64,000 nucleotides of DNA from Acidobacteriota bacterium (GTDB taxonomy: Bacteria > Acidobacteriota > CAIWXX01), in contig JBFMAF010000033.1 of assembly GCA_040755995.1 (NCBI GenBank), forward strand, positions 1-64,000, given 5' to 3'. Every line of letters begins with the position of its first letter. Within the stretch, counting starts at the first letter, position 1. The notes under the pieces were generated by a model. The model ran no database searches. It was not told the DNA's origin and worked only from the letters and a program-made list of their open reading frames with translations. Made by a program: the position numbers and the translations under genes. Of the stretch, positions 22,436-47,794 are shown in pieces.

Positions 22436-22439
22436 GGGC

Positions 22440-22865
22440 TCAGGTGACGACAAGCGAAAGCTCCCCCTTGGCCACCACCTCGCCGGAAACCCGTATGACG
22501 GCGTCGATGCATGCCATCGGGCTCGATGCCGCCGTCAGGCGGACTTCGATAGTGAGCTCGGACCCCGGCGCGACCGGCTTGAGGAACTTGAACCGGTTCA
22601 CCGCCACCAGAAGGTGGTCGCCGGCGGCGGCGCCCTCGGCTCGGCCGGCCGCCTGAAGCACGGCGGCCGTCTGAGCCGCTGCCTCGATGAGGAAAACTCC
22701 TGGCAGCACGGACCTGCCCGGGAAATGTCCCGCGAAGAACTGCTCATCCGGGTCGATGTACTTCAAGGCAACGCACCTCTTCCCCGGCTCAACCTCGACC
22801 ACGCGGTCGATCCACAGAAACGGCGGTCGATGTGGTATCAGAGAAAGGATTTCGTTCTTGTCCAA
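22440..22865 (-). CDS. fabZ: 3-hydroxyacyl-ACP dehydratase
   Basis: IPHRPPFLWIDRV, FFAGHFPG..VLPGV.LIEAAAQ, F.KPV.PG. Confidence 0.9.
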   Translation of the reverse strand: MDKNEILSLIPHRPPFLWIDRVVEVEPGKRCVALKYIDPDEQFFAGHFPGRSVLPGVFLIEAAAQTAAVLQAAGRAEGAAAGDHLLVAVNRFKFLKPVAPGSELTIEVRLTAASSPMACIDAVIRVSGEVVAKGELSLVVT

Positions 22866-23552
22866 CTACCTCGCTCCTTGCGGCAGGTACAGGTCGAACA
22901 GCTTCGGGTCAAGAGGCGAGTTCACCGATTCGATCTCTACCCGGTAGACGCTGTTCACGCCGTTCTTCCCGTCCACCTCCAGAAGCCGCAGCATGAAGCT
23001 GCCCTTGTCCAGATCGACTCTGATGTAGTTGACCCTCTGCCTGAATCGTTCCGACCGCGGAACCAGATTCAGGTGATAGGCGGCCTGATCCTCGCCGGCC
23101 GAGATATTGAAACTCGCTTTCAAGTTTGCGAGCGAGCTATCGGAGCTGAAGTACTTCTGTGCCCTCCTCACCTGGTCGCCTACCCTGATGACCTCCGTGT
23201 TCTTCTTCTCCCTGCCAGTCGTGACGTTCAGGTAGTCGCCGCTGTAGATGATGCGCATGGCGTCGGGGTCCGTGTATTCCAGGCGGAACTTGTCGGTTCC
23301 CGAGGCATGGAATATGCCGTGAAAGACCACAGGTCGTACGAAGAGCCTGGATGTCCGCGTTTCGGTAACCGTACCGGACCAGGTGGAATTCCTCTTCTGC
23401 GCCGCCTGAACGCCCTGCCAGACGCGGTCCAGCAGCTCATCACTCCCGGCCGGGGCTGCGGCGCCGAGATGAGCGTGGGTCCCAAAAGCCACGACGACAA
23501 TCGGGAAAGCAAGGCGCGACCGAACGGTGCGTCTCATCCATCGATCTTCCAC
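22866..23552 (-). CDS. LolA-family outer-membrane lipoprotein carrier
   Basis: Signal peptide; FRLEYTDPD, LNLVPRS, C-terminal NSPLDPKLFDL..P. Confidence 0.8.
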   Translation of the reverse strand: MEDRWMRRTVRSRLAFPIVVVAFGTHAHLGAAAPAGSDELLDRVWQGVQAAQKRNSTWSGTVTETRTSRLFVRPVVFHGIFHASGTDKFRLEYTDPDAMRIIYSGDYLNVTTGREKKNTEVIRVGDQVRRAQKYFSSDSSLANLKASFNISAGEDQAAYHLNLVPRSERFRQRVNYIRVDLDKGSFMLRLLEVDGKNGVNSVYRVEIESVNSPLDPKLFDLYLPQGAR

Positions 23553-23598
23553 GTCACTGGATTCTATACAGCGTGCAACCGGTGCACAACAGGGACGA

Positions 23599-24309
23599 CT
23601 ACAGCCCGAAGTATCGAAAAAAGAGCGACCAGAAGCAGATGCGGACGGTGTCGCGGACTGGGTTCATTTTGGATCGTGCCTTGCCTCCGTCGTAGACGAG
23701 GCTCACCGGCGCGTGCGCGACCGTCGCGCCGGACCTGCAGAGCTTCAGCAGGATCTCCATTTCGATCTCGTACTTGCGCGACCTGAGTTTCAGCGGCCGG
23801 AGCTTCTCCAGGCTGACCAGGCGAAATCCGCACTGGCTATCCTTGACGGTAGTTCCTGCGAGGCGGGACGCGAGTTTGCTGCCGACGCTGTTGGAGAAGT
23901 GCCGCTCGGCAGGCATGAGGCGCTTGTCGAAATTGCGGGCGCCTATGACGATGTCGGCCCCGGTCTGCAGCGCTGTCTTGACGAGGGACGGGATCTCGTC
24001 GGGGCGGTGTTGGCCGTCGGCGTCCATGAACAGGACGTGGCTGAAGGCGCAGTCGCAAAGATGGGCGAGGCCCCGGCGGACTGCGGCACCCTTGCCCTGA
24101 TTGCTGACCTGCAGAAGGCAGGTGGCTCCCGCTGCTTCCGCGGCTTCTGCTGTGCCGTCGTTCGAGCCGTCGTCCACGACCAGCACCGATGACACGTGGT
24201 CCAGCGCGCCGCGGACGACCGAGCCGATCGTCTCGGCCTCGTTGTAGGCGGGGATGAGGGCGCAGATCGACATCGTTGCCGGCGCGTGGGGCTGCGAATT
24301 GGAGTTCAT
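23599..24309 (-). CDS. GT2-family glycosyltransferase (DPM1-like)
   Basis: IPAYNE, VDDGSND, NQGKGAA, MDADGQH, DSQCGFR. Confidence 0.9.
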   Translation of the reverse strand: MNSNSQPHAPATMSICALIPAYNEAETIGSVVRGALDHVSSVLVVDDGSNDGTAEAAEAAGATCLLQVSNQGKGAAVRRGLAHLCDCAFSHVLFMDADGQHRPDEIPSLVKTALQTGADIVIGARNFDKRLMPAERHFSNSVGSKLASRLAGTTVKDSQCGFRLVSLEKLRPLKLRSRKYEIEMEILLKLCRSGATVAHAPVSLVYDGGKARSKMNPVRDTVRICFWSLFFRYFGL

Positions 24310-24310
24310 C

Positions 24311-25066
24311 TCAGACCAGGACGAATTCGTAGCCGCGGGCTCTCAGCTCGTCGATGAGCAGCGGGAGCACGTCGAGCATCCCGGTGGATGCGGCCATCGC
24401 GTTGTCGTGCAGAAGGACGATGTCTCCGGGCTGGACCCGGGCGAGCACCCGCGCGACTATGTTGGCAGGCTTGCGAGCGATTGTATCGAACGTCCGGAGT
24501 CGCCAGGACACGTACTCGAGGCCGTAGCGCGCGAGATAGCGGCTGAGCAATGGATGCTTCAAGCCAACGGGGGACCTGAAGTGCCGGGGGCGCGTTCCGC
24601 AGTGCAGTGCAAGGGCCTCCTGTGTCCTCTGGATCTCGTCGCGCAGTCTGCCGGGCGAAAGGAAGCAGAAGAGCGGTGGATGCGAATACGTGTGGTTGGC
24701 GACAAGATGCCCATCTCCTACGATCCGCCGCATCAGATCGGGCTGCTGGGCGGCCCGTTGGCCGACGATGAAAAACGTCGCGCGCACGTTCTTCTCCCGT
24801 AGAATGTCCAGGAGCCGGCCCGTTTGATACGAGTTCGGCCCGTCGTCGAACGTCAGGGCCACGCAAGGTCTGCTGCAGTCGACGTGCGCGCGGTTTTGCA
24901 TCAGCAGCTGCGAGCGCGGGTGGAGCAGCGCGTAGACGGCAGCCGCGTTGCCCGCGACGCACACCGTCACGCACACCAGGATTCTCATCGGCTGCGGAGG
25001 GGAGGCGATGAGCCAGATGCCGTTTGCAACAAGCACCAGTACAGCAAACGCACCGGCTCTCATCAC
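24311..25066 (-). CDS. Polysaccharide deacetylase (CE4/NodB) family protein
   Basis: ALTFDDGP, NHTYSH, FRSPVG, IVLLHD; N-terminal membrane segments. Confidence 0.9.
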   Translation of the reverse strand: MMRAGAFAVLVLVANGIWLIASPPQPMRILVCVTVCVAGNAAAVYALLHPRSQLLMQNRAHVDCSRPCVALTFDDGPNSYQTGRLLDILREKNVRATFFIVGQRAAQQPDLMRRIVGDGHLVANHTYSHPPLFCFLSPGRLRDEIQRTQEALALHCGTRPRHFRSPVGLKHPLLSRYLARYGLEYVSWRLRTFDTIARKPANIVARVLARVQPGDIVLLHDNAMAASTGMLDVLPLLIDELRARGYEFVLV

Positions 25067-25127
25067 GCCAATCTCCTTTCAGGCATGAGAACGCCGATAG
25101 GCGAGGGAGGACGGCGAATGAGTGCCT

Positions 25128-26561
25128 TCAAGGCGCGTCGGCCGGCTGCGAGCACGGAAGGCGATGATCCCTCAGGTACGCCCTTGGATCCATGAGTCTC
25201 TGCGTTCTCATCATGATCCGCATCATTCTTGGGACCTGTGACGGTCGGACCCCCCTGAGCCAGCTCCACCACTTCTTCCTGCCACCCAGGTGGAGAACGC
25301 TTCGCCGCCATGTCTCGCAGTAGAGCTCGAAGAACTTCTCTGCCGGGAGTCTTGGCTGCCACAACAGATGATGCAGGTCATACAGGCTCCAGTCGAAGAC
25401 TTCCACCTTCTCCCGCATGCTCTCGAAGTAGTGTGTGCCCGGCAACGGCGTGAGGATCGTGAACCCGACCCGGTACAGCTTGTGCTCATCGAGGAAGTCC
25501 CACAGCGCCGCGAAATCATCCTCGGTGTAGTCGGGGTTTATGATGAAGTTGCCGGTCACACCAAACCCGAGACGGCGGGCCGTGCGCACAGCCTCTACGG
25601 TGCTGGCCACGTCGAAATCCTTGTTCAACGAGTCCAGCCCGGCATGAGTCGGGGACTCGAAACCGAAGAAGATATCGAAGTCCCGCGCCAGCGGCCTCCA
25701 GAGCTCCAGCAGCTCTCCGCCGCCGGCGACCAGGTCGACCCGCGACTGCACCAGCATCCACGCCTTGCGCTCGGGCGATGCCAGCAGGGCCCGCGCAAGA
25801 TCCGTGCTGCGCTCCTTCTCCGCCCAGAAGATGTCGTCGATCACGAACACGTTGTGGCCGACGGCCTCGAAGTCCTTCCTCACGTTCGCGGCAGAATGGA
25901 ACCTGGTGGTCCCCTTGTAGAACTGCCAGACGGAACAGAACCTGCAGCGATACGGGCAGCCCCGCGTCGTTTCCATCGTCCACACCGGCATGTAGTTGAG
26001 ACAGCAGTAGTGCCGTTGGTAGCGAGCGACCAGCGAGTGGTCGGGCGGTGCGACGCTTCCGAGATCCTGAGGGCCGCTGTTCTCTTTCGGCCGCTGAAAC
26101 ACGCCTCCGGTCGGTCGCGTCATTGCGGACGGTACGCCCTCGACCGACCCGCGCGCCTGAAGCGCCTCGCATAGGTCGCCCATCACGCGCTCCCCTTCGC
26201 CGATGCAGATCGTGTCAACACCCTCGGCGTCGGCCAACGCGGTCGGATAGGCCGACGCGGCGTGTCCCCCGACCACCACGTGAATCGAGTGGTCGAATTC
26301 CCTGATCTCGCGAGCCAGGCGCGCGGTAGCCGGCGCGTCCAGAATGTGCACGCACGAGATCCCCGCGACCTGCGGCCGCTCGCGCTCCAGCAACCCCCGT
26401 ATCGCCGCGCCCTCGAAACGCAAGTCGACGAGGGATACGGAGTGACCGCGGGATTGAATCGCGGCGGCAACGTACTCGAGGCCGAGCGGCTCGGTCTGGA
26501 AGAACGGAGCCAGGCCGAACTGCACCGAGCCCGGATGAGGCTTGATCAGGAGAACCTTCAC
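25128..26561 (-). CDS. B12-binding radical SAM protein (no. 4), resembling HpnR-type lipid methylases
   Basis: EPLGLEY, VGGHAAS, GEGE, RGCPYRCRFCSVW.FY, GFES, LTPLPGT; start GTG 26561 or 26570. Confidence 0.85.
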   Translation of the reverse strand: MKVLLIKPHPGSVQFGLAPFFQTEPLGLEYVAAAIQSRGHSVSLVDLRFEGAAIRGLLERERPQVAGISCVHILDAPATARLAREIREFDHSIHVVVGGHAASAYPTALADAEGVDTICIGEGERVMGDLCEALQARGSVEGVPSAMTRPTGGVFQRPKENSGPQDLGSVAPPDHSLVARYQRHYCCLNYMPVWTMETTRGCPYRCRFCSVWQFYKGTTRFHSAANVRKDFEAVGHNVFVIDDIFWAEKERSTDLARALLASPERKAWMLVQSRVDLVAGGGELLELWRPLARDFDIFFGFESPTHAGLDSLNKDFDVASTVEAVRTARRLGFGVTGNFIINPDYTEDDFAALWDFLDEHKLYRVGFTILTPLPGTHYFESMREKVEVFDWSLYDLHHLLWQPRLPAEKFFELYCETWRRSVLHLGGRKKWWSWLRGVRPSQVPRMMRIMMRTQRLMDPRAYLRDHRLPCSQPADAP

Positions 26562-26607
26562 CGTATCCACCCGATTCCCGGCAGCCGCCCCAAGTCCATC
26601 GCCCGGC

Positions 26608-26616
26608 AGTATACCA
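26608..26616 (-). promoter_or_regulatory. Extended -10 element for the lipid cluster
   Basis: Minus strand TGGTATACT about 40-50 nt upstream of the first cluster gene. Confidence 0.45.
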
Positions 26617-26884
26617 CTGCCTTGCGGGGCCAGGAATACGCAGCGGAGCACGGCATTCGGCTGGCACCGATTGAGGCTCGAGCTGGACGAGGCTCTCCGA
26701 TCGGAGAGAGCTTCTATCCTACCGGAGAGCCGTGCGCCACCATGCGTCACGAATCCTATGAACTTCCCCTGGCGCAGGCTTCGCACTATCTACGCCGCAC
26801 GGTTGAATCGGCGCTTCGCCGAGGTGCTTGCACCTGCTGGCACGCGGCTTGCTTGGTGTATGGTTGGAAAGGAAGGAGGCAAAC

Positions 26885-35744: not shown

Positions 35745-38540
35745 CTACCTCACAGTGAAGCGATATGTCTTCGAGCGCGTGCGGCCGTGCTCGTTGTAAG
35801 CAGTCACACGCCAGTAGTAGGTGGTGCGGCGGTTCAGCCCCTTGAGCTCGTACTCAGTGCCGGTGATTCCGTTCACCTCTGCGAAGATCTTGCCCTTGCG
35901 TGAGCCTTCGCGCACTATCAGGTCGTATCCGTCGACACAGGAGCTTTGCCACTTGAGAGTCACCGTCGTGCGTGTTCTGCCGTGGTTCGCCGGGGAGATG
36001 AGCTCGGGCTTGTCCGGCGCGTCTTCGCACTCTCCGGGCGCGAGCGCCTTCGTCGGGCCCGCCCACTCGGATCCGCCCTCGTTCCTGACAGCCTCGACCT
36101 TGTAGTAGTAGGTCTCCGATGCGGTGATCGTCGTGTCGTTGAACGAGTAAGTCGCACCCTGGTGGGAGCTGCCTGTGGACTCGATGAGGTCGGCGTTCAA
36201 CTTGGTATACTCGCCGTTCCGGCTCGTGCTGCGCCATACGTTGAATCCGAGCACGTCCCTCTCCGTTTGAGTCTTCCATTCGACGTCGACCTGGGTTGGG
36301 CCGACGATCGTTGCCGTGAGCGATACGATGGTGGCAACAGTAGGTCCGTTCAGAGTCCATGTGCCGTTGCCGCTCACGCGCTTTACTACGATATAGCAGC
36401 CTTCGGTGGTGGATGCCGTATAGTCGATGCTTTCGTCGGTCCCCGACCCCGCGTTGGTGCTCGACGCTCGTATGACCGGGTTGCCTTTCGAATCGGGCGT
36501 GGCGGAATAGACGTACAGGTCGAAATCGGCCGTGGCCGGGACGTCCAATGTCAACACGGCCCTGTGCCCGGAGGTTAGGCTCGAGTACCTCCCCCAAGCG
36601 CGCCGGTCAAAGGCTCCGCCGTTGGTGGAGCCGTTGATGCTGCTTCCCGTGTACTGAAGCATCACCGCTTCGATCGCCGCGTCGGGATTGATCATCCCGT
36701 AGCCTTCGAATCTGTCCTTGGGCGTTGCCGCTCTGCCGAGGGTGGGATCAGAGCCCGAGCTTGCTTCACGGTTCGCGTTGCTCTCTGTCGCAGTGGCACA
36801 CAGGAGCATCTTGACCAGCAGGGGATGGGTGCTGGAGCTGAAACTCCAGGTCAAGCCCTTCTGCTGCAGCGCGTCAATCACAAGGGCGGCAGCACCTGCA
36901 GCGAATGGAGATGCCATGGAGGTTCCCTTGATGTTGTAATAGTCGTGCGCCGCCACGTCGGAGAAGCTGGTAGTCAACGCGTCGGCGTCGTTCGAATCCA
37001 CCGACAGTATGAGGGCGTAGTAGTCGGATCCTCCGGGCGCCATGACGTCCGGCTTGTTGTCCTCATCGGCTTCGGGGCTAAGAAAACCGCTGCTGGTGTA
37101 TTCGGTCAGCTCGTTAAGGGTATTGCCTGCGGCGACCGTGAGCGCCTTGGCTGCCCTTCCAGGATCATCCACGAGATTTGCGTTCGCAGTCCCGGGCCCA
37201 TCGTTTCCGGCGGAACAGACGGCCACTATGCCGTTATCGACCATCGTATTCACCTTGGTGCGCTGTGTAGTGCTGATGCCCGGGTCGCCGATCACCCCGA
37301 TGCTCATGTTGACTACCTTGATGTTGTGGGTGGTGCGCTGAGTCACCACATCGTCCATCGCCTCTCCGATATCGACGCCGCTTCCAGTTCCGGCGTTGGT
37401 GAACACCTTGAACCCCGCCCATCGGCAAGACGGCGCGACACCGCTCAAGGCGTTGAACCCATCTCCGACGACGGAGTAAGTCACCGTGTGAGCGCCGGCC
37501 CAATACGTATTGGTTCCGTTGGAATTCACCGTGCCCGTGTAGTGTGTCCCAGATGCTGCCGTGAAGTTGCTGGTCCAAGTGAGGGGCGAACTCCCTGATG
37601 TGCCGCTGATGAGAGTGTAGGGAGCGGCGTCGCCGTCAGGGTCGTACCGATGACGGACAAGGGTGGTCCCACCGCCGGCCCAGGTACCGACTGTCGTCCA
37701 TGCGATGCTTGAGCCCGCTGAGAGATGGATCGGGCTGGGTGAGTAGTACCCAGACGGTAAGCCGGTCCAATCGCCACTGTCGGTGAATCGAAGCTGTGTC
37801 GGCGTGGCGGCGATGGCGGCGCCGGTGCCCAGGGCGATGCCGGTGACATGGGTCCCATGCTGGATTATGTCCCTGGGATTCGCCTCGGCATCCGACGTCC
37901 AGTCCACCCAGTACTCCTGGCGTCCGTTGAGGTCGGTGTGTGAATCGTCGATGCCCGTGTCGATAACGCCTATGGTGATGTTCGAGTTGCCGTCGAAGCC
38001 GGCAGCACTTCCAGCGAAGCCCGATACCCAAACGGGCCTGACTCGGCCGTTCTGGGTTGCTTCCTTCAGGTGCAGCTCCGCTGGATGATCGCCGACCACC
38101 GCGACCAGATTCGCTCCCATGGCGGCGGGCAGTTGTTCCACGCTGCCGATGGCGATCCGGCCGTTCCAGCCGTAGCTGACGGATTGGTAGATATGCTCGA
38201 TGACACCGCCCATGGCAGTGAACCTGTTGATCTGATCCTGTGTGATCTGTTCCGCGAAGACGAGCTCGATACGGGCGATTTCCGCCAGTGCCTGAGTGCG
38301 TTCAGCGGGCTGTGCGAGCTTTCTCGCTGCGGAGAGCTTGTCATCTATCAGATCGTCGATCTTGTTGAGGTCCCGGTCGTCAGGCCCCAGGTCGGCGATA
38401 ATCGGTCTCACCGCGGGCTCGGGCGGAGCGACCAGTTCTTCAGGAGGCAGCGCCCGGTCAGCTGCCTGACCGACTAACGTGCCCGCGGAAATCAGAAATG
38501 AGAATGCGACAACGAAGAAGACGATTCGACGCTTGGTCAT
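35745..38540 (-). CDS. Secreted S8 (subtilisin-like) serine peptidase with PPC-like and FN3-like C-terminal domains
   Basis: Signal peptide; VIDTG (Asp), HGTHV (His), SAGNDG, GTSMASP (Ser); DFDLYVY; TYYWRV. Confidence 0.9.
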   Translation of the reverse strand: MTKRRIVFFVVAFSFLISAGTLVGQAADRALPPEELVAPPEPAVRPIIADLGPDDRDLNKIDDLIDDKLSAARKLAQPAERTQALAEIARIELVFAEQITQDQINRFTAMGGVIEHIYQSVSYGWNGRIAIGSVEQLPAAMGANLVAVVGDHPAELHLKEATQNGRVRPVWVSGFAGSAAGFDGNSNITIGVIDTGIDDSHTDLNGRQEYWVDWTSDAEANPRDIIQHGTHVTGIALGTGAAIAATPTQLRFTDSGDWTGLPSGYYSPSPIHLSAGSSIAWTTVGTWAGGGTTLVRHRYDPDGDAAPYTLISGTSGSSPLTWTSNFTAASGTHYTGTVNSNGTNTYWAGAHTVTYSVVGDGFNALSGVAPSCRWAGFKVFTNAGTGSGVDIGEAMDDVVTQRTTHNIKVVNMSIGVIGDPGISTTQRTKVNTMVDNGIVAVCSAGNDGPGTANANLVDDPGRAAKALTVAAGNTLNELTEYTSSGFLSPEADEDNKPDVMAPGGSDYYALILSVDSNDADALTTSFSDVAAHDYYNIKGTSMASPFAAGAAALVIDALQQKGLTWSFSSSTHPLLVKMLLCATATESNANREASSGSDPTLGRAATPKDRFEGYGMINPDAAIEAVMLQYTGSSINGSTNGGAFDRRAWGRYSSLTSGHRAVLTLDVPATADFDLYVYSATPDSKGNPVIRASSTNAGSGTDESIDYTASTTEGCYIVVKRVSGNGTWTLNGPTVATIVSLTATIVGPTQVDVEWKTQTERDVLGFNVWRSTSRNGEYTKLNADLIESTGSSHQGATYSFNDTTITASETYYYKVEAVRNEGGSEWAGPTKALAPGECEDAPDKPELISPANHGRTRTTVTLKWQSSCVDGYDLIVREGSRKGKIFAEVNGITGTEYELKGLNRRTTYYWRVTAYNEHGRTRSKTYRFTVR

Positions 38541-38775
38541 GCCCCTCACCCTCCTGTCGGAAGCCCGTGACCGATGGCCGGAGAACGCATGTCTTCCAGT
38601 CGATGCGGTCGCCCGTTTTTTCGATCAACACTGTACTTATTTAAGAGCAATGGGCCGCACCAAGTCAAGTTCTGTTTCAGTGCTTCATGTGCGTGGCATG
38701 TTTGTGATCTATGTGTGATAGACTGCCGGTCGGTGCGCGGGGGAGCTAGCCCGGCGGCCTCGCGCAGAAATGGGT

Positions 38776-39030
38776 ATGGCGAACTCTTACACTACCAGAG
38801 AAATCGGCTCCGAATTGCTTCTGTATGATGCCGAGACTGATGAGGTGCACGTTCTCAATGCCACCGCGCGGCTGGTTTACGAATTGCACCAGATGGGGAG
38901 CACGCCGGCCCAGATTGGAGAGGTTCTCAGGAGTCGGTTCTCCCTGGGCGAAGAAGTCGACGTCCTCGGCGACGTCGTGGGTTGCCTCGACGAGCTGCGG
39001 AAAAAGGGCATGATCGCGTCCGAGGCGTAG
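38776..39030 (+). CDS. PqqD-family protein (RiPP recognition element)
   Basis: E.LLYD.....VHVLNATA..VYEL......I...L..RF......DV...L.EL...GMI. Confidence 0.85.
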   Translation: MANSYTTREIGSELLLYDAETDEVHVLNATARLVYELHQMGSTPAQIGEVLRSRFSLGEEVDVLGDVVGCLDELRKKGMIASEA

Positions 39031-39080: not shown

Positions 39081-39542
39081 TCAGGAGCTGAGAGCCCTGC
39101 GGCAGCGGCTTGCTGAAGCCAGCGCTCCAGCCCACACTAGGCTCATCAGTGCAAGCATCGGATTCAACCATCTCCACGGTATGGCCCGCATCCTGAGTAT
39201 CCGGTCTCCCCTGTGGATGGCATCGACCGTGCCGACTACGCGATCTGCGTCCACCCAGCTCCACCCGTGCTGATTATCTCCCCTCTGGCAGACGCGCAGC
39301 GCGCCGCTCGTTCTCGATTTTCGGACGAGCCGGTGGACAACGAGGCTCCCATCGTTCCAGAAGGCGAGGATATCGCCTCTGCTAGGCTCCTCGGGATGCA
39401 CCAGCCGGATGTCCACGTGGTCGCCCGGCCGGATCAGCGGCCACATGCTCCGCCCCGCGACAGGCACCGAGACCATCCTCTGCGCGTCTCGATAGCTCCG
39501 CAGAATGGGCAGCGCGTACTGAACCGGGCTCTCTTCGCGCAT
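39081..39542 (-). CDS. S24/S26 signal-peptidase-like protein (Ser-His type)
   Basis: GRSMWPLI.PGD, GDI, VVHRL, RGDN. Confidence 0.85.
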   Translation of the reverse strand: MREESPVQYALPILRSYRDAQRMVSVPVAGRSMWPLIRPGDHVDIRLVHPEEPSRGDILAFWNDGSLVVHRLVRKSRTSGALRVCQRGDNQHGWSWVDADRVVGTVDAIHRGDRILRMRAIPWRWLNPMLALMSLVWAGALASASRCRRALSS

Positions 39543-39547
39543 CCTAC

Positions 39548-42367
39548 CTAGTCCCTGCGCTTGACGGCCAGCTCGGTGGCCGTGTCTCCGAGAAGCGTGA
39601 AAGTCTTCACCAGGTCCTCGGTGGCACCTCGAGCGTACGCCTTGATCCTCGATTGCGTCGTGATCTGGCCGAGGCCCTTCCGCCCCTGTTCGAATATCGA
39701 CGAGAAGACCTCTTCTCCGAGGAAGCTGTGTTCCCAGGAGTACCCCAGACCTGTAGGCGCGAAGCTCGCGACGGCGCCCTTGCTGTGCGCCACCACGAAT
39801 TCCTCTCCGAGCGAGTCGTAGTACGGATTGGAGAAGTACCCGTTCAGGCAGTCCAGGGTCATCACGAAGGTGAGGTGATCGTTGTTCTGGAGCGATGCCA
39901 CGTCGGCCGAATCGAAAAGCCCCTCTCCCGTCCAGATCGTGACATTGGCATGCCCGACATAGTTAGTGATCACCACCCCTGAGTCGATATTCGCGATGAT
40001 ATCCTGTGTCGCCTGAGCCGTCGACGAGTATGAGCCCAGATACACCCTGCGCGGCTCATATCGAGAGGGCAAGAGGCCGATCAGCGTCTCGTTGATCTGC
40101 TCGAAAACGGACTCGTAGTTGTCTGCGGCGAAGAGCGCTGTCTTTGGCATCGAATCCGCGGCGGCCTGATAGCCGGATACCTTTCGCACGAGCGAATCGG
40201 CCGAAGAAGCGTCCTTGGCGGACAATCTTCCGATGAACATGTCCGGGAGCGAGTCGTTTCCGTCCACCGCGACATACCAGTTGTCATCGGGTGTTATGCC
40301 CAGCTCGGAGGTGATGGACAGATGCACCGGCACCAAGTTCTTGGCGCCCGTGAGGAAGTAGTCCCTGTAGTCGGTGTTCGCGTCCCCGAGTAGAACCACG
40401 TGGGTTGGCGCGGGCTTTCTCCACCTGCGATAAGCATTGGCGAGGAAATCCTTGATGGCCTGTGGATTGAAGATGCCATAGTTGAACTCGTTGTAGATGT
40501 CATCGACGACCACCGACACGGTTCTCAGCCCCTGTTTCTTCCGCAGCTCGCACAACCGATCTGCTGCCGACTTGAAGCCGCGGGGCGATATCACGATGTA
40601 GTCCGCGCTGTTCCTCCGCGACTTCAAGTTCGTCGCGCGCCAGAATGTGACCTCGTCCGGAACCCGCCGGCTCGCCTGCGCAGCCGCCCAATATCTCTTC
40701 TGTCCCGCGAGGTCTGTCTCGAACGATACCTTGGACGCCCGGCCCGCCGCTCCAATCTGCAGCCCAGTCACCTCTTTGACGTCACGGGGGTCGCTGATGT
40801 CGAAAACCGTGGCGTCCGGACTGAGGTTGGCAACTTCGAGGAGATACCGTCCTGCGCCTTCGACCGTAAACGCCAACTGATCTCCGACCGCCTCAAAGCG
40901 CCGTTTGTATACAACCTCGATCCAGTTGAGCAGAACCTGATCAGTCGACGCACCGGGGTCCTTGATGAGCTGAACAGTCAGCGTATTGGCCCCACCGAGC
41001 AGCAACGCCGAGGTCGCGGTCATCTCCTGAGTGTGGGCTATGGTGCCAGCCCAGTATTCGTCGCTCAACAGCGTTCCGTTCAGCGACACCTGGGTATGGT
41101 GCACACCCGTGCTGTAGCCCCGATAGCAGACCCGCACGATTGCCCCGTAGGCTTCAGCGGCCGGCCCAGGTACTTGAAGACCGTAATTCTTCGTCGCCTG
41201 CGACGTGATTCGTTCCCAGAACCAGTAGTCCTCTTCGGTCGCCCCCGGCGTGCCTTCCCACACCCTGTGATTCTCTTCGACGTGAAGCGTGTCCCAGAAG
41301 GAGCCCAACGGCGTGCCGAGGCCCGTCACAGAGCCGTCCACTGTGTCCATCCTGGTTCCGGAATTCCCACCCCATTGGAGCCAATAGACGTTCGTGTCCG
41401 TGAATTGATCGTCCAGTCTCTCGGCGTAGAACTCCAGGTAGTCCCCGTTCCGGAACTTGCTCGAAGACCGGCTCACCAGCTTGAATGCCACCTCGTTCCC
41501 CTTGTTGGTGAGGCGGAAACTGGAAGGATTGATGCGCCTGGCGATTACGCCAGCGTTCCTGAGATCTCCATAGCCAACTCTGTAGATACCGGCCTGCTTG
41601 ACTCCGATCTTCAGCGCGTCGGCGAGCGGCCGCGACTCGTCTGTCTCGGAGCCCGGTTCGAGACCGGGCGCCGGCGCGGAGAGATCCGCGGCATCGTAAT
41701 TGATCACAGCATCATCCAGCAGCTGCTCAAATGCGCCATCGGCGCTCGGCGTTGGCGCGGCAGCAGGCTGGTGCGGCCCGGGGCCGAACGAGACTTCCAC
41801 TAGCATTCTCTGCGACACGCGGAGCTCCCTCGTGGATGGATTCCACTGGATGGGGTACATGGTCACCCTGCGAACGGGCACCCCGCGCAGCCATTGCACA
41901 TCCGAGACATCTGCAGTCTTTCCCGGGTAGAAATCCGGCTGGCCATATACCGATGCGTCTCGCACATGCTCTGTAAGCACGGCGCCCTTCTCACCCAGCC
42001 TCAGGCGCGGTACCGAGCCGACCTCCTGATCGGGGTAGGACTCATGGCCCTGCTCGACAACGTGCAGCACAGCCTCGCTATCGGGCGGGACCCGGATCAG
42101 GACGCTTCGTACGGGGAGGTCGGGATGGCCGGGTGTGGCCACCGAAGCCCAGCCCTCTACTCGGACCTTCTGATACGGGCTTCCGCCGGCGTCATAGAGA
42201 GTGTCTGATTCGACGCGCGGCGTCGCAAGCTCGATCGTCAATCCCGATTCTGTCTCCGAGAGCAGCCGCACGTCTTCATCGGCGAGCAGAGGATACGCAA
42301 CCATCGCAGCCGCTGCCAGCTGAGCAACCGCGAGCGTCTTGAGATTATCGATTCGCACATGTGTCAT
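39548..42367 (-). CDS. C25 (gingipain-like) cysteine peptidase with propeptide
   Basis: Signal peptide; PG.PDLP propeptide; ADYIVI, IYNEF, HVVLLGD, PDMFIGRL, NYVGH (His), LDCLNG (Cys), LLGD. Confidence 0.85.
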   Translation of the reverse strand: MTHVRIDNLKTLAVAQLAAAAMVAYPLLADEDVRLLSETESGLTIELATPRVESDTLYDAGGSPYQKVRVEGWASVATPGHPDLPVRSVLIRVPPDSEAVLHVVEQGHESYPDQEVGSVPRLRLGEKGAVLTEHVRDASVYGQPDFYPGKTADVSDVQWLRGVPVRRVTMYPIQWNPSTRELRVSQRMLVEVSFGPGPHQPAAAPTPSADGAFEQLLDDAVINYDAADLSAPAPGLEPGSETDESRPLADALKIGVKQAGIYRVGYGDLRNAGVIARRINPSSFRLTNKGNEVAFKLVSRSSSKFRNGDYLEFYAERLDDQFTDTNVYWLQWGGNSGTRMDTVDGSVTGLGTPLGSFWDTLHVEENHRVWEGTPGATEEDYWFWERITSQATKNYGLQVPGPAAEAYGAIVRVCYRGYSTGVHHTQVSLNGTLLSDEYWAGTIAHTQEMTATSALLLGGANTLTVQLIKDPGASTDQVLLNWIEVVYKRRFEAVGDQLAFTVEGAGRYLLEVANLSPDATVFDISDPRDVKEVTGLQIGAAGRASKVSFETDLAGQKRYWAAAQASRRVPDEVTFWRATNLKSRRNSADYIVISPRGFKSAADRLCELRKKQGLRTVSVVVDDIYNEFNYGIFNPQAIKDFLANAYRRWRKPAPTHVVLLGDANTDYRDYFLTGAKNLVPVHLSITSELGITPDDNWYVAVDGNDSLPDMFIGRLSAKDASSADSLVRKVSGYQAAADSMPKTALFAADNYESVFEQINETLIGLLPSRYEPRRVYLGSYSSTAQATQDIIANIDSGVVITNYVGHANVTIWTGEGLFDSADVASLQNNDHLTFVMTLDCLNGYFSNPYYDSLGEEFVVAHSKGAVASFAPTGLGYSWEHSFLGEEVFSSIFEQGRKGLGQITTQSRIKAYARGATEDLVKTFTLLGDTATELAVKRRD

Positions 42368-43514
42368 GACTGTCCATCCAATCCAGGGTACTCAGTACTG
42401 ATTCTACTTCAAGATCAAGCCTGCCGGGCGAGAGCCGGTAGCTCCGGACGCCCTCCAGCAGAGCGTTCAGCTCCATGAAAAGCTTGCCGGGCTTGCGCCC
42501 ATCACCTGTGAAGTGGGCCGCAGTCTCCCTCTTCATCTCGCGAAGCAGATAGAAGCAAGCCTCGTCGTTCCGCATCCGAGACAGCACCGGCATTCGGTCG
42601 AAGTCGTGAGCACTACTGGTGACTCGATGAGCGTCCCAGATGTCATCTCTGTGTCTTTCCAGAATCGCGGAAATCCGCCTCGTCGACTCCGGACTCCGGG
42701 CGTAGCGTATCTGATACTCGTTTCCCCATTCGTCCCTTTCGACGACAATCACATGGTCCAGCGCGGCGAGCTCGGAGAGAATCGGCGCTTCCTTCCCGAT
42801 TCGAATTGCCATTCGAAGCTCTTCCTCACGCGCCGGCTCCTCAGCCGGCATGAGACAGATCAGCGATCTCAAACGGCAGGCCTCACGCACGAGCGGCAGC
42901 TCCAGCTCGTCGGGTTTCATGGGTGTCTTGTCACGGCGAGCGGCAGACTCATCTGGCACCCTGCTTCCGCGGTCGCCGGCGATCACATCCCTCGACCTTA
43001 TCCAAAGCCCTCGCGGAAACGGATGCACCAATCGCGTCTTCCTGTTGATCGGGGCGAAATCGTCCGAGAGGAAACCGAACCCGTTCTCCACAAGCCTCAA
43101 GGCCAGGGTTGTCTTGCCCGATCCGGGCGGCCCGCTGATCGCGATCGCCTCGCGTTCCCTCGCTACTACTGCTGCATGCAAGATGAGGTAATCGGAAGCA
43201 GCGCCCAGGACCGCCCTGCTGATGTTCTGGAATACGTAGGCCGCAGGGAAAGGCCGCCCGTCTCTCGGGCAGGGCGTTCCGTTGATCTTGAGGAATGCGG
43301 CGCTCGGGGACCGTTTCGATTCGAACGACAGCGAAATCTGAGGCTCGCCAGAGAGGCACGGCAGCGCACAGAAGCCGTACTCCTGATCGAGCCGCTCCAG
43401 GAGGGGAACCGAATCTGAGCGGATCTCGACTGAGACGTCCAAAACCCGGTAACACCTTGACGCCCCACTGCGCTCAGAAGGCGTCGGCCGAGCCTCGCCT
43501 GATACAGCGCGCAT
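42345..43514 (-). CDS. HPr kinase-related P-loop protein
   Basis: LHAAVV, GPPGSGKTT, FLSDD, PFPR. Confidence 0.8.
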   Translation of the reverse strand: MRAVSGEARPTPSERSGASRCYRVLDVSVEIRSDSVPLLERLDQEYGFCALPCLSGEPQISLSFESKRSPSAAFLKINGTPCPRDGRPFPAAYVFQNISRAVLGAASDYLILHAAVVAREREAIAISGPPGSGKTTLALRLVENGFGFLSDDFAPINRKTRLVHPFPRGLWIRSRDVIAGDRGSRVPDESAARRDKTPMKPDELELPLVREACRLRSLICLMPAEEPAREEELRMAIRIGKEAPILSELAALDHVIVVERDEWGNEYQIRYARSPESTRRISAILERHRDDIWDAHRVTSSAHDFDRMPVLSRMRNDEACFYLLREMKRETAAHFTGDGRKPGKLFMELNALLEGVRSYRLSPGRLDLEVESVLSTLDWMDSHDTCANR

Positions 43515-43516
43515 GC

Positions 43517-44875
43517 CTAGTCCGCCGAAGACGCGCGATCGAACTTGTCGAGGATCCGGTCAAACGCGAGCTGGTAGGCCCGCCTGCGATAGTTGCAGAA
43601 GGCGTCAGTTTCGAAGATTGTCCCGTGGTTGTCCAGCGCCTGTCCCATGCATCCCGCCTGGCACAAGTTCTTCCACGTACACGGCCGGCACCTTTCTATG
43701 GTATTCCGACGGCTAGCGAGTGCCTTGCAGGTCTCCATCATCTTCGGTGAACGAATCAAGCGGGAGGTGCCGTCATCGATCACGTTTCCCAGCTTGAATT
43801 CGTCCCGCATCATCAGCACGCAAGGGAACGCATCACTATCGACCCCGATGACCAGGGAGTTGCCGACCGGGCACCAGATCCCATCGCTTGTGTCGGGTTG
43901 GGGCATCTTCAAGATGAAGCCGCTCAAGCCGCAAGTCACCGCCACAGAGCAGGCCGCGTCTCTCGTACCAGGCCGGCTGAGGTCGAACAGACTCTCATAG
44001 TCTTCGATCTGCATAGAAGCCCCCACCGATTGCCAATGCTTCTCAGCATTCCCGACCTTCCTCAGGGGGAGGAATCTGACTCTCGGGATCCCGAGACGTT
44101 CTGCCAGGCCGACGATACGCTTCTGGTCATGGAGATTCTGCTTCATGACGGTCGCGGCCAGCGTGATCATATCTCCCAGGCCGGCATTCTGGAGACTTTC
44201 CAGCGCCTGCATTGTTCGCTTGAAACTGCCGCGGCCCCGGATGGCATCGTTTGTCTCTTCGTCCGATCCGTCGAGACTTACCTGGATGGCCGGCCTGATC
44301 TCACCGGCAAGGAAGGAGGCCCAATCTTCGTCGATCTGAGTACCGTTCGTGAGTATCTGTATGCCTGTCTTCCCCACCGCGTGTTTCAGGATAGGTACGA
44401 TATCAGGATGGAGCAGCGGTTCGCCTCCGCTCAGCGTAACGAGCTCGCCTCCCTCCTCCGCGAGCTCGTCGATCAGTCTGATGACCACGGCCGCCGGAAG
44501 GTCGGCATTCGAACGGGACGGATAGTAGCAATGCTGGCATGGAAGGTTGCACCGTGTGGTCAGATGGATGAAGAGAGCCAGCAGACTTGGTGACCTCGAT
44601 GGCGCAGTCGTGTCGCAAGGCGTGAAGCCACACCTTTCGAGTTGCAAGGCAACCGCTCGCACATCTTGGTGTGCCACGTCTGGAGGCAACTCGTACCTGT
44701 CGCTCAAGCAGAGAGCCACGTCCTCCGGCGGCTCGCCGCGCATGAGTCGCTGCGCGATCTCTGTCGCGCTGTGATTGGCGACAAACCACTCCGGGCGATG
44801 CGGATGCAGAATGACCTCGCTCCCGCCTCGTCTCTCGCTCCCCGTCCGAGGCGGATAGAGCAGAGGGCGCGCCAT
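43517..44875 (-). CDS. Radical SAM/SPASM peptide maturase with N-terminal RRE-like domain
   Basis: CNLPCQHC, SGGEP, TNG, SLDG; SPASM CPVG...PC...CRPC....LCQAGC...C; N-terminal N.SA.EI...L..RY......DV...L; ATG 44875 preferred. Confidence 0.9.
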   Translation of the reverse strand: MARPLLYPPRTGSERRGGSEVILHPHRPEWFVANHSATEIAQRLMRGEPPEDVALCLSDRYELPPDVAHQDVRAVALQLERCGFTPCDTTAPSRSPSLLALFIHLTTRCNLPCQHCYYPSRSNADLPAAVVIRLIDELAEEGGELVTLSGGEPLLHPDIVPILKHAVGKTGIQILTNGTQIDEDWASFLAGEIRPAIQVSLDGSDEETNDAIRGRGSFKRTMQALESLQNAGLGDMITLAATVMKQNLHDQKRIVGLAERLGIPRVRFLPLRKVGNAEKHWQSVGASMQIEDYESLFDLSRPGTRDAACSVAVTCGLSGFILKMPQPDTSDGIWCPVGNSLVIGVDSDAFPCVLMMRDEFKLGNVIDDGTSRLIRSPKMMETCKALASRRNTIERCRPCTWKNLCQAGCMGQALDNHGTIFETDAFCNYRRRAYQLAFDRILDKFDRASSAD

Positions 44876-44880
44876 GGAGC

Positions 44881-45096
44881 TCAACCGGGCCTGGGTCTCC
44901 GCTTGTACTTTCGCTGATAGGGTGTAGCAGGGTTGAGTGTGCAGGTCGGAGAGCCGGTGCATGCCAGGGCAGGTCCGATCTGCTCCAGGATCTGCTCGCT
45001 CGTGTACGTTACGATTCTCGGTGCGACATACTTGGGCGGGTCCTGCTCGATCTCTTTTTCAGCATGAGTGCATTCACGCGGATCATCTGGAATCAT
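44881..45096 (-). CDS. Putative RiPP precursor peptide (71 aa)
   Basis: GGGGAGGG RBS; YVAPRI matches the YxxPx(L/I) RRE-binding leader motif; Cys/Thr/Ser core CTGSPTCT; stop 5 nt before the radical SAM start. Confidence 0.75.
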   Translation of the reverse strand: MIPDDPRECTHAEKEIEQDPPKYVAPRIVTYTSEQILEQIGPALACTGSPTCTLNPATPYQRKYKRRPRPG

Positions 45097-45483
45097 CTTC
45101 CCTCCCCACTATCCTATTCCCCGGGAACCCAGCCCGTATTCTGCACCAAGCGGAGGATTTTTTCCAGAGGGTCATTCATTTCATTTCGATGATCGATTCA
45201 TCCGTGTGGACACCCGCCGGTTTCCAGTCGTGGCGGAGAATGGCGGGAATCGTCCTGATTCCGCGTTTGCACTAGTGGGAACGAAACACAGGTGTGGGGA
45301 GAAGCAGGCAGAAATCCGGCGGCGCAACGTGGGTCTAGCGCGCGCGATCGGTTGTCGAAGAAAAGAGTGGCGCGTTCGACAGCGTTGGCGCTCGATGTGT
45401 ACTGTGAGAGGCACATCGGGAGACGAGCCAATCCGGCCGAACAACATCCAGGTGATGCAAGCCTGGCATAGAAGGAGGAGCAC

Positions 45484-46704
45484 ATGGCAGGTCCAGGTCC
45501 AGTGGGCACCAAACCCGTCGTGGTCCCGCCGGCCACCCAGCAATCAGGCGCGGTCACCAAGGCAGGGACGAAGAGCACATCGCCATTCACTCTACCGGTC
45601 CTCGACGAGACGAAGCTGGGGAAAAGGATCGACGAGGCATTCAGTCGATTCGACCTGAGTGGGCTGCAACGGACCAAATCGAGCGCCTCCTCCCGGGGGT
45701 CTCAGGCCGTTTCAAACACCAAGGTGGAGGACAATGCCGGTCCCGAACGCACCGTCACGGTGAGGGACAGGAGAGGCAACGCCTTCCAGATCGAGTTCAC
45801 ACCGAACCCAAAGAGCAGCAAACGAATCATCGGCGACCACGCGCTCTCGAGGAACGCGATGATCTCGATGATACAGAAAAAGGGAAAAATGGCCGAATGG
45901 GACAAGCTCGACAAACACGACATCAACGGCGTCAAGAAGTTCATGGACCGCATGAATCTGTCGACCGAGGACAAGGTCAAGTTCGTCAACAACTACCTCA
46001 CGAGTTTCTACAATCATCCTGGCAAAGACATAGCATGGAGGGGCAACCCCCCTCTCCAGGACGCCATCAACGCAGTTCCCGTGGACAAACAGGGCAGAAA
46101 GTACCTGGACTGCGAAGGCTACACCAGACTCGCCGGACACCTCCTCGGAGAATCGAAGGTCAACCACTATGCTCTCGACGCCGAGGGGAGTGGAGGCCGC
46201 GATCACCAGGTGGCAGTCTTCCGCGAGGGTGGCAAAGCCTACGTGATCAACAATAATCAGATCACCAAGGTGGATGCTTCTAACTCAGACGCGGACGCAA
46301 TACGCGAGGCGCATCCGGGCCACAAGGACATCGTGCGCGATACATCCGGCCCGATGGCTTATGGCACCGAGATGTACAAGAAGGGCCAGAGCATCCACGG
46401 CTCAATCCCACATGCGCACGTCGACCGAATCGTCGACCCGAAGACCATGATCGGCCAGGTCAACGACCCGAGACGGGGCAGCTACCACATCAAGATCTCG
46501 GTCGATCCCGGGACGGGAAGACTGAGCAGGAAGATGGACCTCCGAGCCGGCAACGAGCTCAGGGACACGGCCGGCAATACGATCACCATCACCAAGAGAA
46601 ATCCAGATGGCACGTACCAGGCCATGAAAGAAGACAGCCGCGGGCGGTTCACACAGGTGTGCGTAACCGTTACTCCGAAGGGCGACAATTGGAGCTGGCG
46701 TTAG
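45484..46704 (+). CDS. Hypothetical protein with possible transglutaminase/papain-like catalytic triad
   Basis: AGGAGG RBS; low-complexity N-terminus; YLDCEGY...DHQVAVF...YVINN. Confidence 0.65.
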   Translation: MAGPGPVGTKPVVVPPATQQSGAVTKAGTKSTSPFTLPVLDETKLGKRIDEAFSRFDLSGLQRTKSSASSRGSQAVSNTKVEDNAGPERTVTVRDRRGNAFQIEFTPNPKSSKRIIGDHALSRNAMISMIQKKGKMAEWDKLDKHDINGVKKFMDRMNLSTEDKVKFVNNYLTSFYNHPGKDIAWRGNPPLQDAINAVPVDKQGRKYLDCEGYTRLAGHLLGESKVNHYALDAEGSGGRDHQVAVFREGGKAYVINNNQITKVDASNSDADAIREAHPGHKDIVRDTSGPMAYGTEMYKKGQSIHGSIPHAHVDRIVDPKTMIGQVNDPRRGSYHIKISVDPGTGRLSRKMDLRAGNELRDTAGNTITITKRNPDGTYQAMKEDSRGRFTQVCVTVTPKGDNWSWR

Positions 46705-46732: not shown

Positions 46733-47794
46733 TCAGGGCACCGGCTCCAGCACCATGTCCCCGCTTCCGGTGTCTACCTCGATACGGACGCGCCCGTCGC
46801 CTCGGCGGTAGCCGATCACCTCGCGGCCTTCCACGATCGGCTGCGCATCGGAGAACCCGTTCTCGATATCGCCGCTCCCCTGGTCGGCTATGGCTTCGAA
46901 GCCGACGTTCGCAGCCAGCCGGATCGTGACGTCACCGCTGCCCGTGTCCGCCTTGATCGACCTCAGCCGGTCCCCGCGCGTATCCACCTCGACATCGCCC
47001 GAACCGGTGTCGGCCGAAAACTCCTCGGCATCCGCGCTCAACAGAATTATGTCGCCCGAGCCGGTGTCGGCCTCGATCCGTTTCGCCGCGGCCGTGCGCA
47101 CCTCGACCCTCCCCGAACCGGTGTCGCAAACGAGCTTCTCTCCGTTGAATGCGTAGACCTTGCAATCGCCGCTCCCGGTGTCGCACCTCAGCATCCCGTT
47201 CACATCGGTCGCCGAGATGTCGCCGGACCCGGTATCTGCAACCACGTCACCCTTGATCTTGTTGATCGCGATTTCGCCCGTGCCAGTGTCGAAAAGATAC
47301 TTGCCCTCGATCCCCTCGGCCTCGAGCCTCCCGACATGATTCACGAAGTTGCCGTCCATCCAGCGCGCCGGAACGCGGACCTCCAGGTCCGCATAGAGCA
47401 GCACACCGGAGTGCCGGCTGACCGACACATTGTGGTAACCGTCGTAGTCCATGTTCGAGCTGCCGCTCGCCGAATAGCGATAGGTCTTGTATCGGTCGAG
47501 CGGGTACCGTACACGGATGCACGGACGCCCCTTGTCGTTGGTAACGACGTCGAGCCGGAGCAGACCTGCAAGCTCGTTGCTCTCAGCGTGCACCGTGCCC
47601 GTCACGGTGACGGCGGGGCCCTGCCCCTGAAGCACCTTCATGTCTCCCACCAGGTTCTCTACCGCAAATGGTTCCTTCAACTCGGATGAGAACGCGCGCT
47701 GAATCTGCTTGGTGACCATCTCGGCCGAAAGCATGCCGGGAATGACGAGAACCGCGAGAAGCACAACAACGGATCGACCCATGAAGCCACGCAT
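46733..47794 (-). CDS. DUF4097-like beta-strand repeat (putative adhesin) protein
   Basis: Signal peptide; many DTGSGD repeats. Confidence 0.85.
   Translation of the reverse strand: MRGFMGRSVVVLLAVLVIPGMLSAEMVTKQIQRAFSSELKEPFAVENLVGDMKVLQGQGPAVTVTGTVHAESNELAGLLRLDVVTNDKGRPCIRVRYPLDRYKTYRYSASGSSNMDYDGYHNVSVSRHSGVLLYADLEVRVPARWMDGNFVNHVGRLEAEGIEGKYLFDTGTGEIAINKIKGDVVADTGSGDISATDVNGMLRCDTGSGDCKVYAFNGEKLVCDTGSGRVEVRTAAAKRIEADTGSGDIILLSADAEEFSADTGSGDVEVDTRGDRLRSIKADTGSGDVTIRLAANVGFEAIADQGSGDIENGFSDAQPIVEGREVIGYRRGDGRVRIEVDTGSGDMVLEPVP

Follow-up and report, generated by a model that had tools for sequence, protein, structure and literature searches.

The 64,000-nucleotide stretch of DNA analysed here (the window), from an Acidobacteriota bacterium, contains a small gene for a RiPP-type precursor peptide in a cassette with a PorU-like C25 peptidase. 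We propose, with a probability of about 0.4 and by analogy with PorU, that the core of this precursor may act as an acceptor or linker for the C25 peptidase in protein sorting. The evidence suggests that the peptide tags or anchors surface proteins rather than acting as an antibiotic. In its widest form, which we put forward more tentatively, a RiPP pathway outside Bacteroidota would make the acceptor for a PorU-like sortase. Cargo would be cleaved in front of an FnIII-like domain, and a phosphorylated peptide, modified by a radical SAM (rSAM) enzyme in one branch, would be ligated to it as the link to the cell surface; at least three unrelated leader families would take part, some cargo would carry its own precursor as a tail, and the system would be widespread and undescribed. 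The gene, its family, the intact enzymes, the correlation of Cys1 with the rSAM enzyme, and the pairing and fusion of cargo and precursor can be read directly from the sequences.

Table 1. Features of the precursor locus, with positions in the window.
Feature	Position	Strand	Basis or remark
Precursor peptide gene, 71 aa	44881..45096	minus	ORF list, RBS, homologues
RBS GGAGG	45101..45105	minus	ends 4 nt ahead of precursor ATG
Leader, aa 1-45	44962..45096	minus	conserved part is aa 23-45
YxxP motif of leader	45019-45030	minus	followed by acidic amphipathic stretch
GPALA cleavage box	44962-44976	minus	leader end
Predicted core, aa 46-71: Cys1, Thr2, Ser4, Cys7	44884..44961	minus	predicted cleavage site
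Basic tail	44884..44919	minus	lineage-specific
RRE-rSAM/SPASM enzyme, 452 aa from likely start 44875	43517..44875	minus	orthologue alignment
HprK-like kinase, Walker A and DD motif	42345..43514	minus	below all curated cut-offs
Secreted C25 peptidase: gingipain-type prodomain and PorU-like body, His/Cys dyad intact	39548..42367	minus	
SpI/S26-type leader peptidase, no N-terminal membrane anchor (by eye)	39081..39542	minus	
Stand-alone PqqD/RRE	38770..39030	plus	PF05402 over cut-off
Secreted S8 protease, candidate C25 cargo	35745..38549	minus	
FnIII-like cargo domain of S8, preceded by PT↓VA; candidate sorting signal	36027..36356	minus	

A precursor gene overlapped by the longest radical SAM reading frame

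Judged by its conservation, the 71-aa ORF is a real gene, and the same conservation points to its translation. An earlier note on this DNA had described it as a hidden ORF with a strong RBS, encoding a YxxP leader, an ALA-Cys junction, a Cx5C core and a basic tail. All of these were found in the ORF, whose minus-strand sequence is identical to that quoted earlier, the plus strand of the same interval being unrelated text. The overlap with the longest rSAM ORF (43517..44962), likewise pointed out in that note, amounts to 81 nt. The note had allowed for the rSAM gene truly starting at 44962 and for the ORF not being conserved, and the results spoke against both. The ATG at 44962 is formed across the codons for Ala45 and Cys46 (A↓TG), has no RBS, and would add an N-terminal extension that is not conserved among loci, and it was therefore rejected as the start; homology among rSAM orthologues begins at the ATG at 44875, 5 nt past the precursor stop, and at 13 of 20 loci the precursor stop comes before the rSAM frame opens at all. 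As for conservation, homologues were found, and a profile search described below retrieved 823 clusters.

The strict leader motif occurs once in the 13.1 million six-frame residues of the genome, namely in this ORF, in line with a single precursor copy in the genome. No family in Pfam or NCBIfam matched the peptide, and a promoter scan found none. That the ORF is a mere shadow of the 5' end of the rSAM gene, as the overlap and a GC3 of 0.61 (0.70-0.76 in the neighbours) might suggest, is hardly credible in view of the 823 clusters, the conserved synteny, the RBS and the lack of conservation of the rSAM extension.

A large family defined by its leader and the first two core residues

A single-sequence search identified five homologues of the precursor, and a single-sequence scan of genome contigs gave no matches. 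A first profile matched 23 of 401 genomes of the phylum, one of them spurious (G123), leaving 22 genuine, and 14 GTDB loci, also with one spurious, which include Deltaproteobacteria/Thermodesulfobacteriota records; the matches L024 (in G123) and L047 were discarded on inspection. Viral contigs searched with the same profile gave no matches. A second profile, built from 47 sequences, retrieved the 823 clusters at E<=0.001 and matched 13 of 301 genomes of a second phylum. In the Atlas, the precursor lay close to unnamed clusters only (0.88-0.89).

Leader and core were counted in the best 150 of the 823 clusters, 147 of which share a fixed spacing of 23 residues from the Tyr to the cleavage site, at a GPAx[A/T/G] box; the residue before cleavage is A in 93, T in 37 and G in 15 of them. 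Of these 147 precursors, 96 have a core starting with Cys and 24 one starting with Tyr; Ser or Thr follows at position 2 in 84 of the 96 Cys1 cores. From these counts the conserved signal is the leader together with core positions 1 and 2. Of the 96 Cys1 cores, 30 lack a second Cys, and the spacing is Cx4C in 38 and Cx5C in 15, so that Cx5C was rejected as a family feature. The same happened to the basic tail: at least four K/R among the last ten residues were found in 5 of the 147, and the earlier proposal of a cationic tail for membrane binding accordingly found no support. The cores are hypervariable, and some are as short as 4-9 residues.

The view taken in the earlier note, of the ORF product as a RiPP-type precursor whose YxxP leader binds an RRE, is supported. 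In many non-Cys cores one of the first three residues is Tyr, which may serve as the target instead. Four loci (L063, L069, L070, L071) contain a PqqD gene followed by a Gly-rich non-Cys precursor with a conserved RL[FY]PG[LM]R tail and no adjacent enzymes.

Cassette enzymes and predicted maturation

The gene order of the cassette recurs widely among the loci of relatives, in which S26, kinase and C25 retain intact catalytic motifs. The S26 peptidase scored 37 bits with TIGR02228, below the cut-off of 51.85, and its Ser/His/Asp motifs are present in 17 of 17 aligned sequences. The kinase matched TIGR04352 with E 2e-16, under the cut-off, and has Walker A and DD/DE motifs; no solved structural relative was found at E<=0.01. 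Among the cassette ORFs of the window, Pfam and NCBIfam searches found no exporter. ABC genes follow the cassette at three related loci (L040, L054, L055).

The closest precedent is the pathway of the linear polyphosphorylated peptides (LPP) of Bacillota (Popov et al. 2026, PMC13381572). According to passages of that paper, RRE-dependent SpI-like cleavage of a YxxP leader was demonstrated for LppS, and an HprK-like kinase polyphosphorylates Ser3 of the core, the final product and its role being stated as unknown; LppK did not modify an S3T variant (the window core has Thr2 and Ser4). What LPP and paeninodin-type phosphopeptides do biologically is, according to the same source, unknown (PMC13381572). 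The main text of the paper names no C25, gingipain, sortase or SPASM, and in the first places where C25 occurs in the supplement it is found only in two column names of a domain matrix (PMC13381572).

By this analogy, RRE binding, phosphorylation and S26 cleavage would proceed as follows. The RREs very probably bind the YxxP leader in the cytoplasm, as the conservation of the motif also indicates. The kinase would then, on balance, phosphorylate Thr2 or Ser4. The earlier assignment of Ser/Thr as kinase targets thus holds in part: it agrees with the Ser/Thr2 found in 84 of the 96 Cys1 cores; among the 51 non-Cys cores from the best 150 of 823 clusters, however, 8 have neither residue, nor do two cores encoded next to a kinase (L097:9441-9884 and L102:9807-9947). 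The S26 peptidase is expected with good confidence to cut between Ala45 and Cys46, freeing the N-terminus of the core. Cleavage after ALA had been proposed before, and it became likely with the spacing kept in 147 of the best 150 of 823 clusters, the Ser/His/Asp motifs kept in S26 and the analogy with LppS.

The window locus shares with LPP a YxxP leader, a discrete RRE, an SpI-like peptidase with Ser/His/Asp, an HprK-like kinase and a variable core, and five related cassettes (L035, L040, L045, L064, L075) also contain NTP_transf_5. There are also differences. The LPP leader YxxPxVLxHQxIxFETxxS is found in none of the best 150 of 823 clusters of precursor relatives, and the leader of the window family is longer and ends in GPAxA/T. 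The window adds the RRE-rSAM/SPASM enzyme, C25 and cargo, whereas an MsbA-like exporter and an NTP transferase are missing from its cassette; the two PF14907 copies of the genome lie outside it, on contigs C12 and C23. LPP belongs to Bacillota, the window family to Acidobacteriota and Desulfobacterota-type genomes. We infer that the locus works like LPP in the RRE-dependent cleavage and kinase steps, yet is no member of LPP. It would represent an LPP-type RRE/SpI/kinase pathway with an undescribed precursor family, the new element being the link to C25 and an FnIII-like cargo domain. The literature searched, mostly open papers, held no account of the precursor leader or of a link between C25 and RiPPs.

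Two further systems were compared. SynChlorMet cassettes (TIGR04248-TIGR04251) resemble the window in having PqqD-like, kinase-like and rSAM/SPASM genes together, but the matches are weak and far below the cut-offs (ScmC 18.9/125, ScmE 106/400, ScmF 100.4/400), and a literature search for the cassette term found nothing. A sibling leader family is labelled 'ScmA-like' here, a label with no model match. With regard to lasso peptides, there is no macrolactam synthetase or B2 peptidase among the cassette ORFs, and the leader YxxPxL...G...T is found in none of the best 150 of 823 clusters.

The radical SAM enzyme follows Cys1

Of the kinase-containing cassettes (three duplicates dropped), 23 of the 24 whose core starts with Cys1 encode the rSAM enzyme, as against none of the 8 others; since related cassettes do not count as independent, the Fisher p of this comparison was set aside. 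At genome level, an rSAM orthologue (E<1e-60) was found in 8 of 9 Cys1 genomes compared with 0 of 14 others, two of which have rSAM matches at 30% identity only. This co-occurrence suggests that Cys1 is the likely substrate: it is Cys1, rather than a Cx5C ring, that is likely to be the conserved target, and modification of Cys1 by the rSAM enzyme is correspondingly a step in which we have considerable confidence. As to the product, a thioether to a nearby core residue is the simplest reading and has about an even chance, and formylglycine from Cys oxidation is a possible alternative; both follow the known thioether- and formylglycine-forming mechanisms of rSAM enzymes. The earlier suggestion that the Cys residues serve as thioether donors stands insofar as the enzyme tracks Cys1, but sits poorly with the missing second Cys (30/96) and the rarity of Cx5C (15/96) in the Cys1 cores from the best 150 of 823 clusters.

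The enzyme scored below all curated cut-offs, and its best solved relative is anSME. As for ranthi- and sactipeptides, the locus combines an RRE-rSAM-SPASM enzyme with a Cys-bearing precursor. The likeness to the maturases of these peptides (CteB, PapB) and to anSME extends to the RRE-rSAM-SPASM architecture, seven invariant SPASM Cys and Cys-dependent co-occurrence; the difference is that here a single N-terminal Cys is enough and that an eighth SPASM Cys is present in 9 of 12 enzymes, the window enzyme included. Seven is the number of Cys expected of ranthi- and sactipeptide maturases, whose auxiliary cluster has an open site.

The C25 peptidase and the cargo domain

The earlier reading of the locus had left out the C25 peptidase and the cargo link. 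The window C25 is closest to PorU in sequence (E 3e-13, dyad aligned) and in fold (800 columns, E 2e-30), although its score of 282.7 with NF033707 is below the cut-off of 420. C25 was found in 21 of the 22 genuine precursor genomes, the exception being G379, compared with 166 of 401 genomes of the phylum overall. Most complete C25s have a signal-like N-terminus.

The products of genes adjoining the precursor are often secreted and have a 105-residue domain in common with the window S8 protease. This cargo domain folds as FnIII and matched none of the curated families; in the Atlas it lay next to unnamed clusters (0.93-0.94), and the nearest named cluster, of 199-aa PF18962-bearing Bacteroidota proteins at 0.83, is a lead only. 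It was detected in 22 of 23 precursor genomes (the exception being G021) and in 2 of 20 C25-negative controls, a comparison that is partly circular since the profile was partly built from these genomes; one of the two control matches is an unpublished genome (G025). In large fused C25s the cargo domain directly precedes the PorU-like body. With four unanchored matches dropped, a loose PT↓xV-like motif was seen ahead of the domain in 9 of the 19 fused cases and in 8 of the 32 stand-alone ones; for the strict PorU motif the counts were 6 and 4, respectively. Tails after the cargo domain (L120, L037, L125, L135, L034) are IPTL-CTERM or, by eye, dockerin-like repeats, a CFI-type Cys tail or a membrane helix.

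PorU, as described in parts of two papers (PMC4560394, PMC10202324), cleaves between T/E/D/N and G/A/S and joins the cargo to amines, among them the N-termini of peptides. The core N-termini observed here (C, Y, G, V, L, M) do not match its (G/S/A)(V/L/I) preference. Window C25 and PorU have in common the His/Cys dyad and the PorU-like body, and the two systems share a C-terminal beta-sandwich cargo domain with, in part of the cargo, a Thr-small-hydrophobic-like site before it. They differ in that the window enzyme carries a gingipain prodomain, that T9SS cargo has PF18962 where the window has the FnIII-like domain, and that the acceptor of PorU is a seryl-sugar of A-LPS and not a gene-encoded peptide. 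Searches for T9SS translocon and PF18962 cargo markers gave no genome matches, and control searches were equally silent.

In a quick tree of 57 C25 domains, 20 enzymes associated with the leader family of the precursor grouped together with weak support (72) and one long-branch outlier inside. A clade with non-Cys cores (n=6, support 98) and one with Cys1 cores (13 of 14, support 97) extended across phyla; such a match of clades to core type is also expected from simple linkage.

A wider sample comprised 39 of 287 C25 matches, hand-picked, one per genome, from genomes without a first-profile match, with 7-20 kb fetched for each. Stand-alone PqqD was found at 22 of these 39 loci (it was absent from the fetched stretch in 17), an HprK-like kinase at 18 and S26 at 10, often together with other YxxP precursors. 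Two more leader families, YxKPxIxxVxLRPEEAVLGxCK and YEKPAIIHTEKLEARAVxC, occur beside C25 at loci L077-L113, both with a Cys immediately after the leader.

Pairing and fusion of precursor and cargo

In three genomes with several precursors, many copies lie directly behind a cargo gene: 8 of 9 in G607, 4 of 7 in G586 and 4 of 9 in G693, where chance would predict 0.001-0.003 per copy (about 0.002 in G607, in which the copies are dispersed). A strict one-to-one rule was nevertheless rejected: most cargo genes have no precursor behind them (in G607, 8 of 31 do), none of the 7 precursors of G440 or the 3 of G637 directly follows cargo, and five other genomes have one precursor each and 1-6 cargo-domain matches. 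In the window, precursor and cargo domain are 8.7 kb apart. The overall cargo-adjacent count of 25 of 56 overstates independence because nine loci of one metagenome (L121, L122, L124, L125, L128-L132), rejected as dispersed paralogues, are mostly homologous near-copies. Cargo and precursor are tandemly duplicated as a unit in three families (L054, L073, L075).

Three G586 proteins and P0083 join both partners in frame as single ORFs, in the order signal peptide, passenger, cargo domain, Cys, hydrophobic helix (19-residue hydropathy 2.0-2.5), K/R-rich linker, leader and core; two of the three G586 fusions have no Met between cargo domain and leader. By the established positive-inside rule, the fused precursor would be a cytoplasmic tail, within reach of the signal-less RRE, kinase, rSAM and S26 enzymes, and each cargo molecule would release one core. 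In L013/L046/L137 the cargo domain is truncated and continues directly into the latter half of a precursor and then into a long ORF. This arrangement occurs both in a genome bin and in a metagenome contig, and is a deletion or a misassembly.

A possible acceptor in protein sorting, and its alternatives

The core is probably needed together with secreted proteins bearing the FnIII-like cargo domain. Beyond this, the exported core may be an amine acceptor: C25 would cut cargo ahead of the cargo domain, at PT↓xV, and ligate the passenger to the core. A link to a surface glycan could be made through the core phosphate, which a nucleotidyltransferase would extend in some lineages. We favour a sorting role on the basis of the co-occurrence of C25 and cargo domain, the cargo pairing, the fusions, the tandem units, the C25 clades and the likeness to PorU, and we count the PqqD and kinase genes at 22 and 18 of the 39 other C25 loci in its support. 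Several observations weaken the acceptor model. The cassette has no exporter although the core is made in the cytoplasm and C25s mostly have a signal-like N-terminus. Pairing is not universal, the window cargo is distant, and no PqqD was seen in the stretch fetched for 17 of 39 C25 loci. Core N-termini are off the PorU preference, and few cargo proteins have the strict motif. Finally, G379 lacks a C25 match and G021 a cargo-domain match, the tree is compatible with linkage, and 8 of the 51 non-Cys cores from the best 150 of 823 clusters have no Ser/Thr.

The alternative that survives best, though we regard it as unlikely, is a free-standing LPP-like phospho- or thioether peptide serving as matrix component, signal or antimicrobial, with the surface-protein genes adjacent through co-regulation, as LPP clusters lie in capsule loci. 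SpI, RRE and HprK kinase are common to LPP, NTP transferase occurs in the five related cassettes, cores are hypervariable, many copies have no cargo neighbour, and LPP works with a described core set that includes no C25. A free peptide would, however, leave unexplained the cytoplasmic-tail fusion, the 8 of 9 dispersed copies behind cargo and the C25 clades by core type.

Less likely again is a core that regulates sorting non-covalently, by activating C25 (e.g. through displacement of the prodomain), by binding the cargo domain or by reporting cargo synthesis. Such a cofactor would fit co-expression and fusion with cargo as well as the gingipain-type prodomain, and would tolerate varied core N-termini; on the other hand, it is not obvious why a catalytic activator should be encoded anew behind each cargo, and the cassette shows no sign of a receptor. 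It is improbable that C25 is instead a maturation enzyme that trims the variable tail of the peptide or cyclises or ligates the core, with the cargo genes as bystanders. The position of C25 inside the operon between kinase and S26, a tree that follows core type and the variable, often absent tails are consistent with maturation, but cores as short as 4-9 residues share no C-terminal recognition motif, and the cargo domain is fused both to C25 and to the precursor.

The acceptor model, if true, would describe a new kind of system. Pairing and fusions tie the RiPP enzymes to C25, and these enzymes may build a structural sorting tag and not a diffusible metabolite; the literature searched gave no account of the role of PorU-like C25 in the phylum, where 166 of 401 sampled genomes have it. 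Should the covalent model fail, there is still a large unannotated precursor family, whose natural switch between Cys1 and rSAM indicates the residue on which an uncharacterised radical SAM enzyme acts.

Related loci and neighbouring genes

The 7.7-Mb genome of the window (G000) has five PqqD-type loci. A second cassette (L076, G000:C44:45032-53905) encodes S26, PqqD, a cargo-fused C25 of 1258 aa, rSAM and an HprK-like kinase, and its precursor (47102-47314) belongs to a different YxxP leader family. PqqD/kinase/rSAM groups are found with NTP_transf_5 (G000:C12:5759-15031) and with an S26 fragment at a contig edge (G000:C50:1-2665), and PqqD with rSAM at G000:C10:160779-162190. The second cargo-domain protein of the genome (G000:C35:131785-133554) lies far from the cassettes, without a precursor. 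In the non-Cys cassettes L064 (6431-8071) and L075 (12388-14007), S26 is fused to NTP_transf_5.

Within the window, an orphan of 406 aa (45484-46704, plus strand) is divergent from the precursor and has no Pfam or NCBIfam match; by eye, its Cys...His spacing recalls papain/transglutaminase-like enzymes. Further away (21218-26786, minus strand), a FabZ-like dehydratase, a LolA-like protein, a glycosyltransferase, a polysaccharide deacetylase and a B12-type radical SAM enzyme appear by eye to form one operon.
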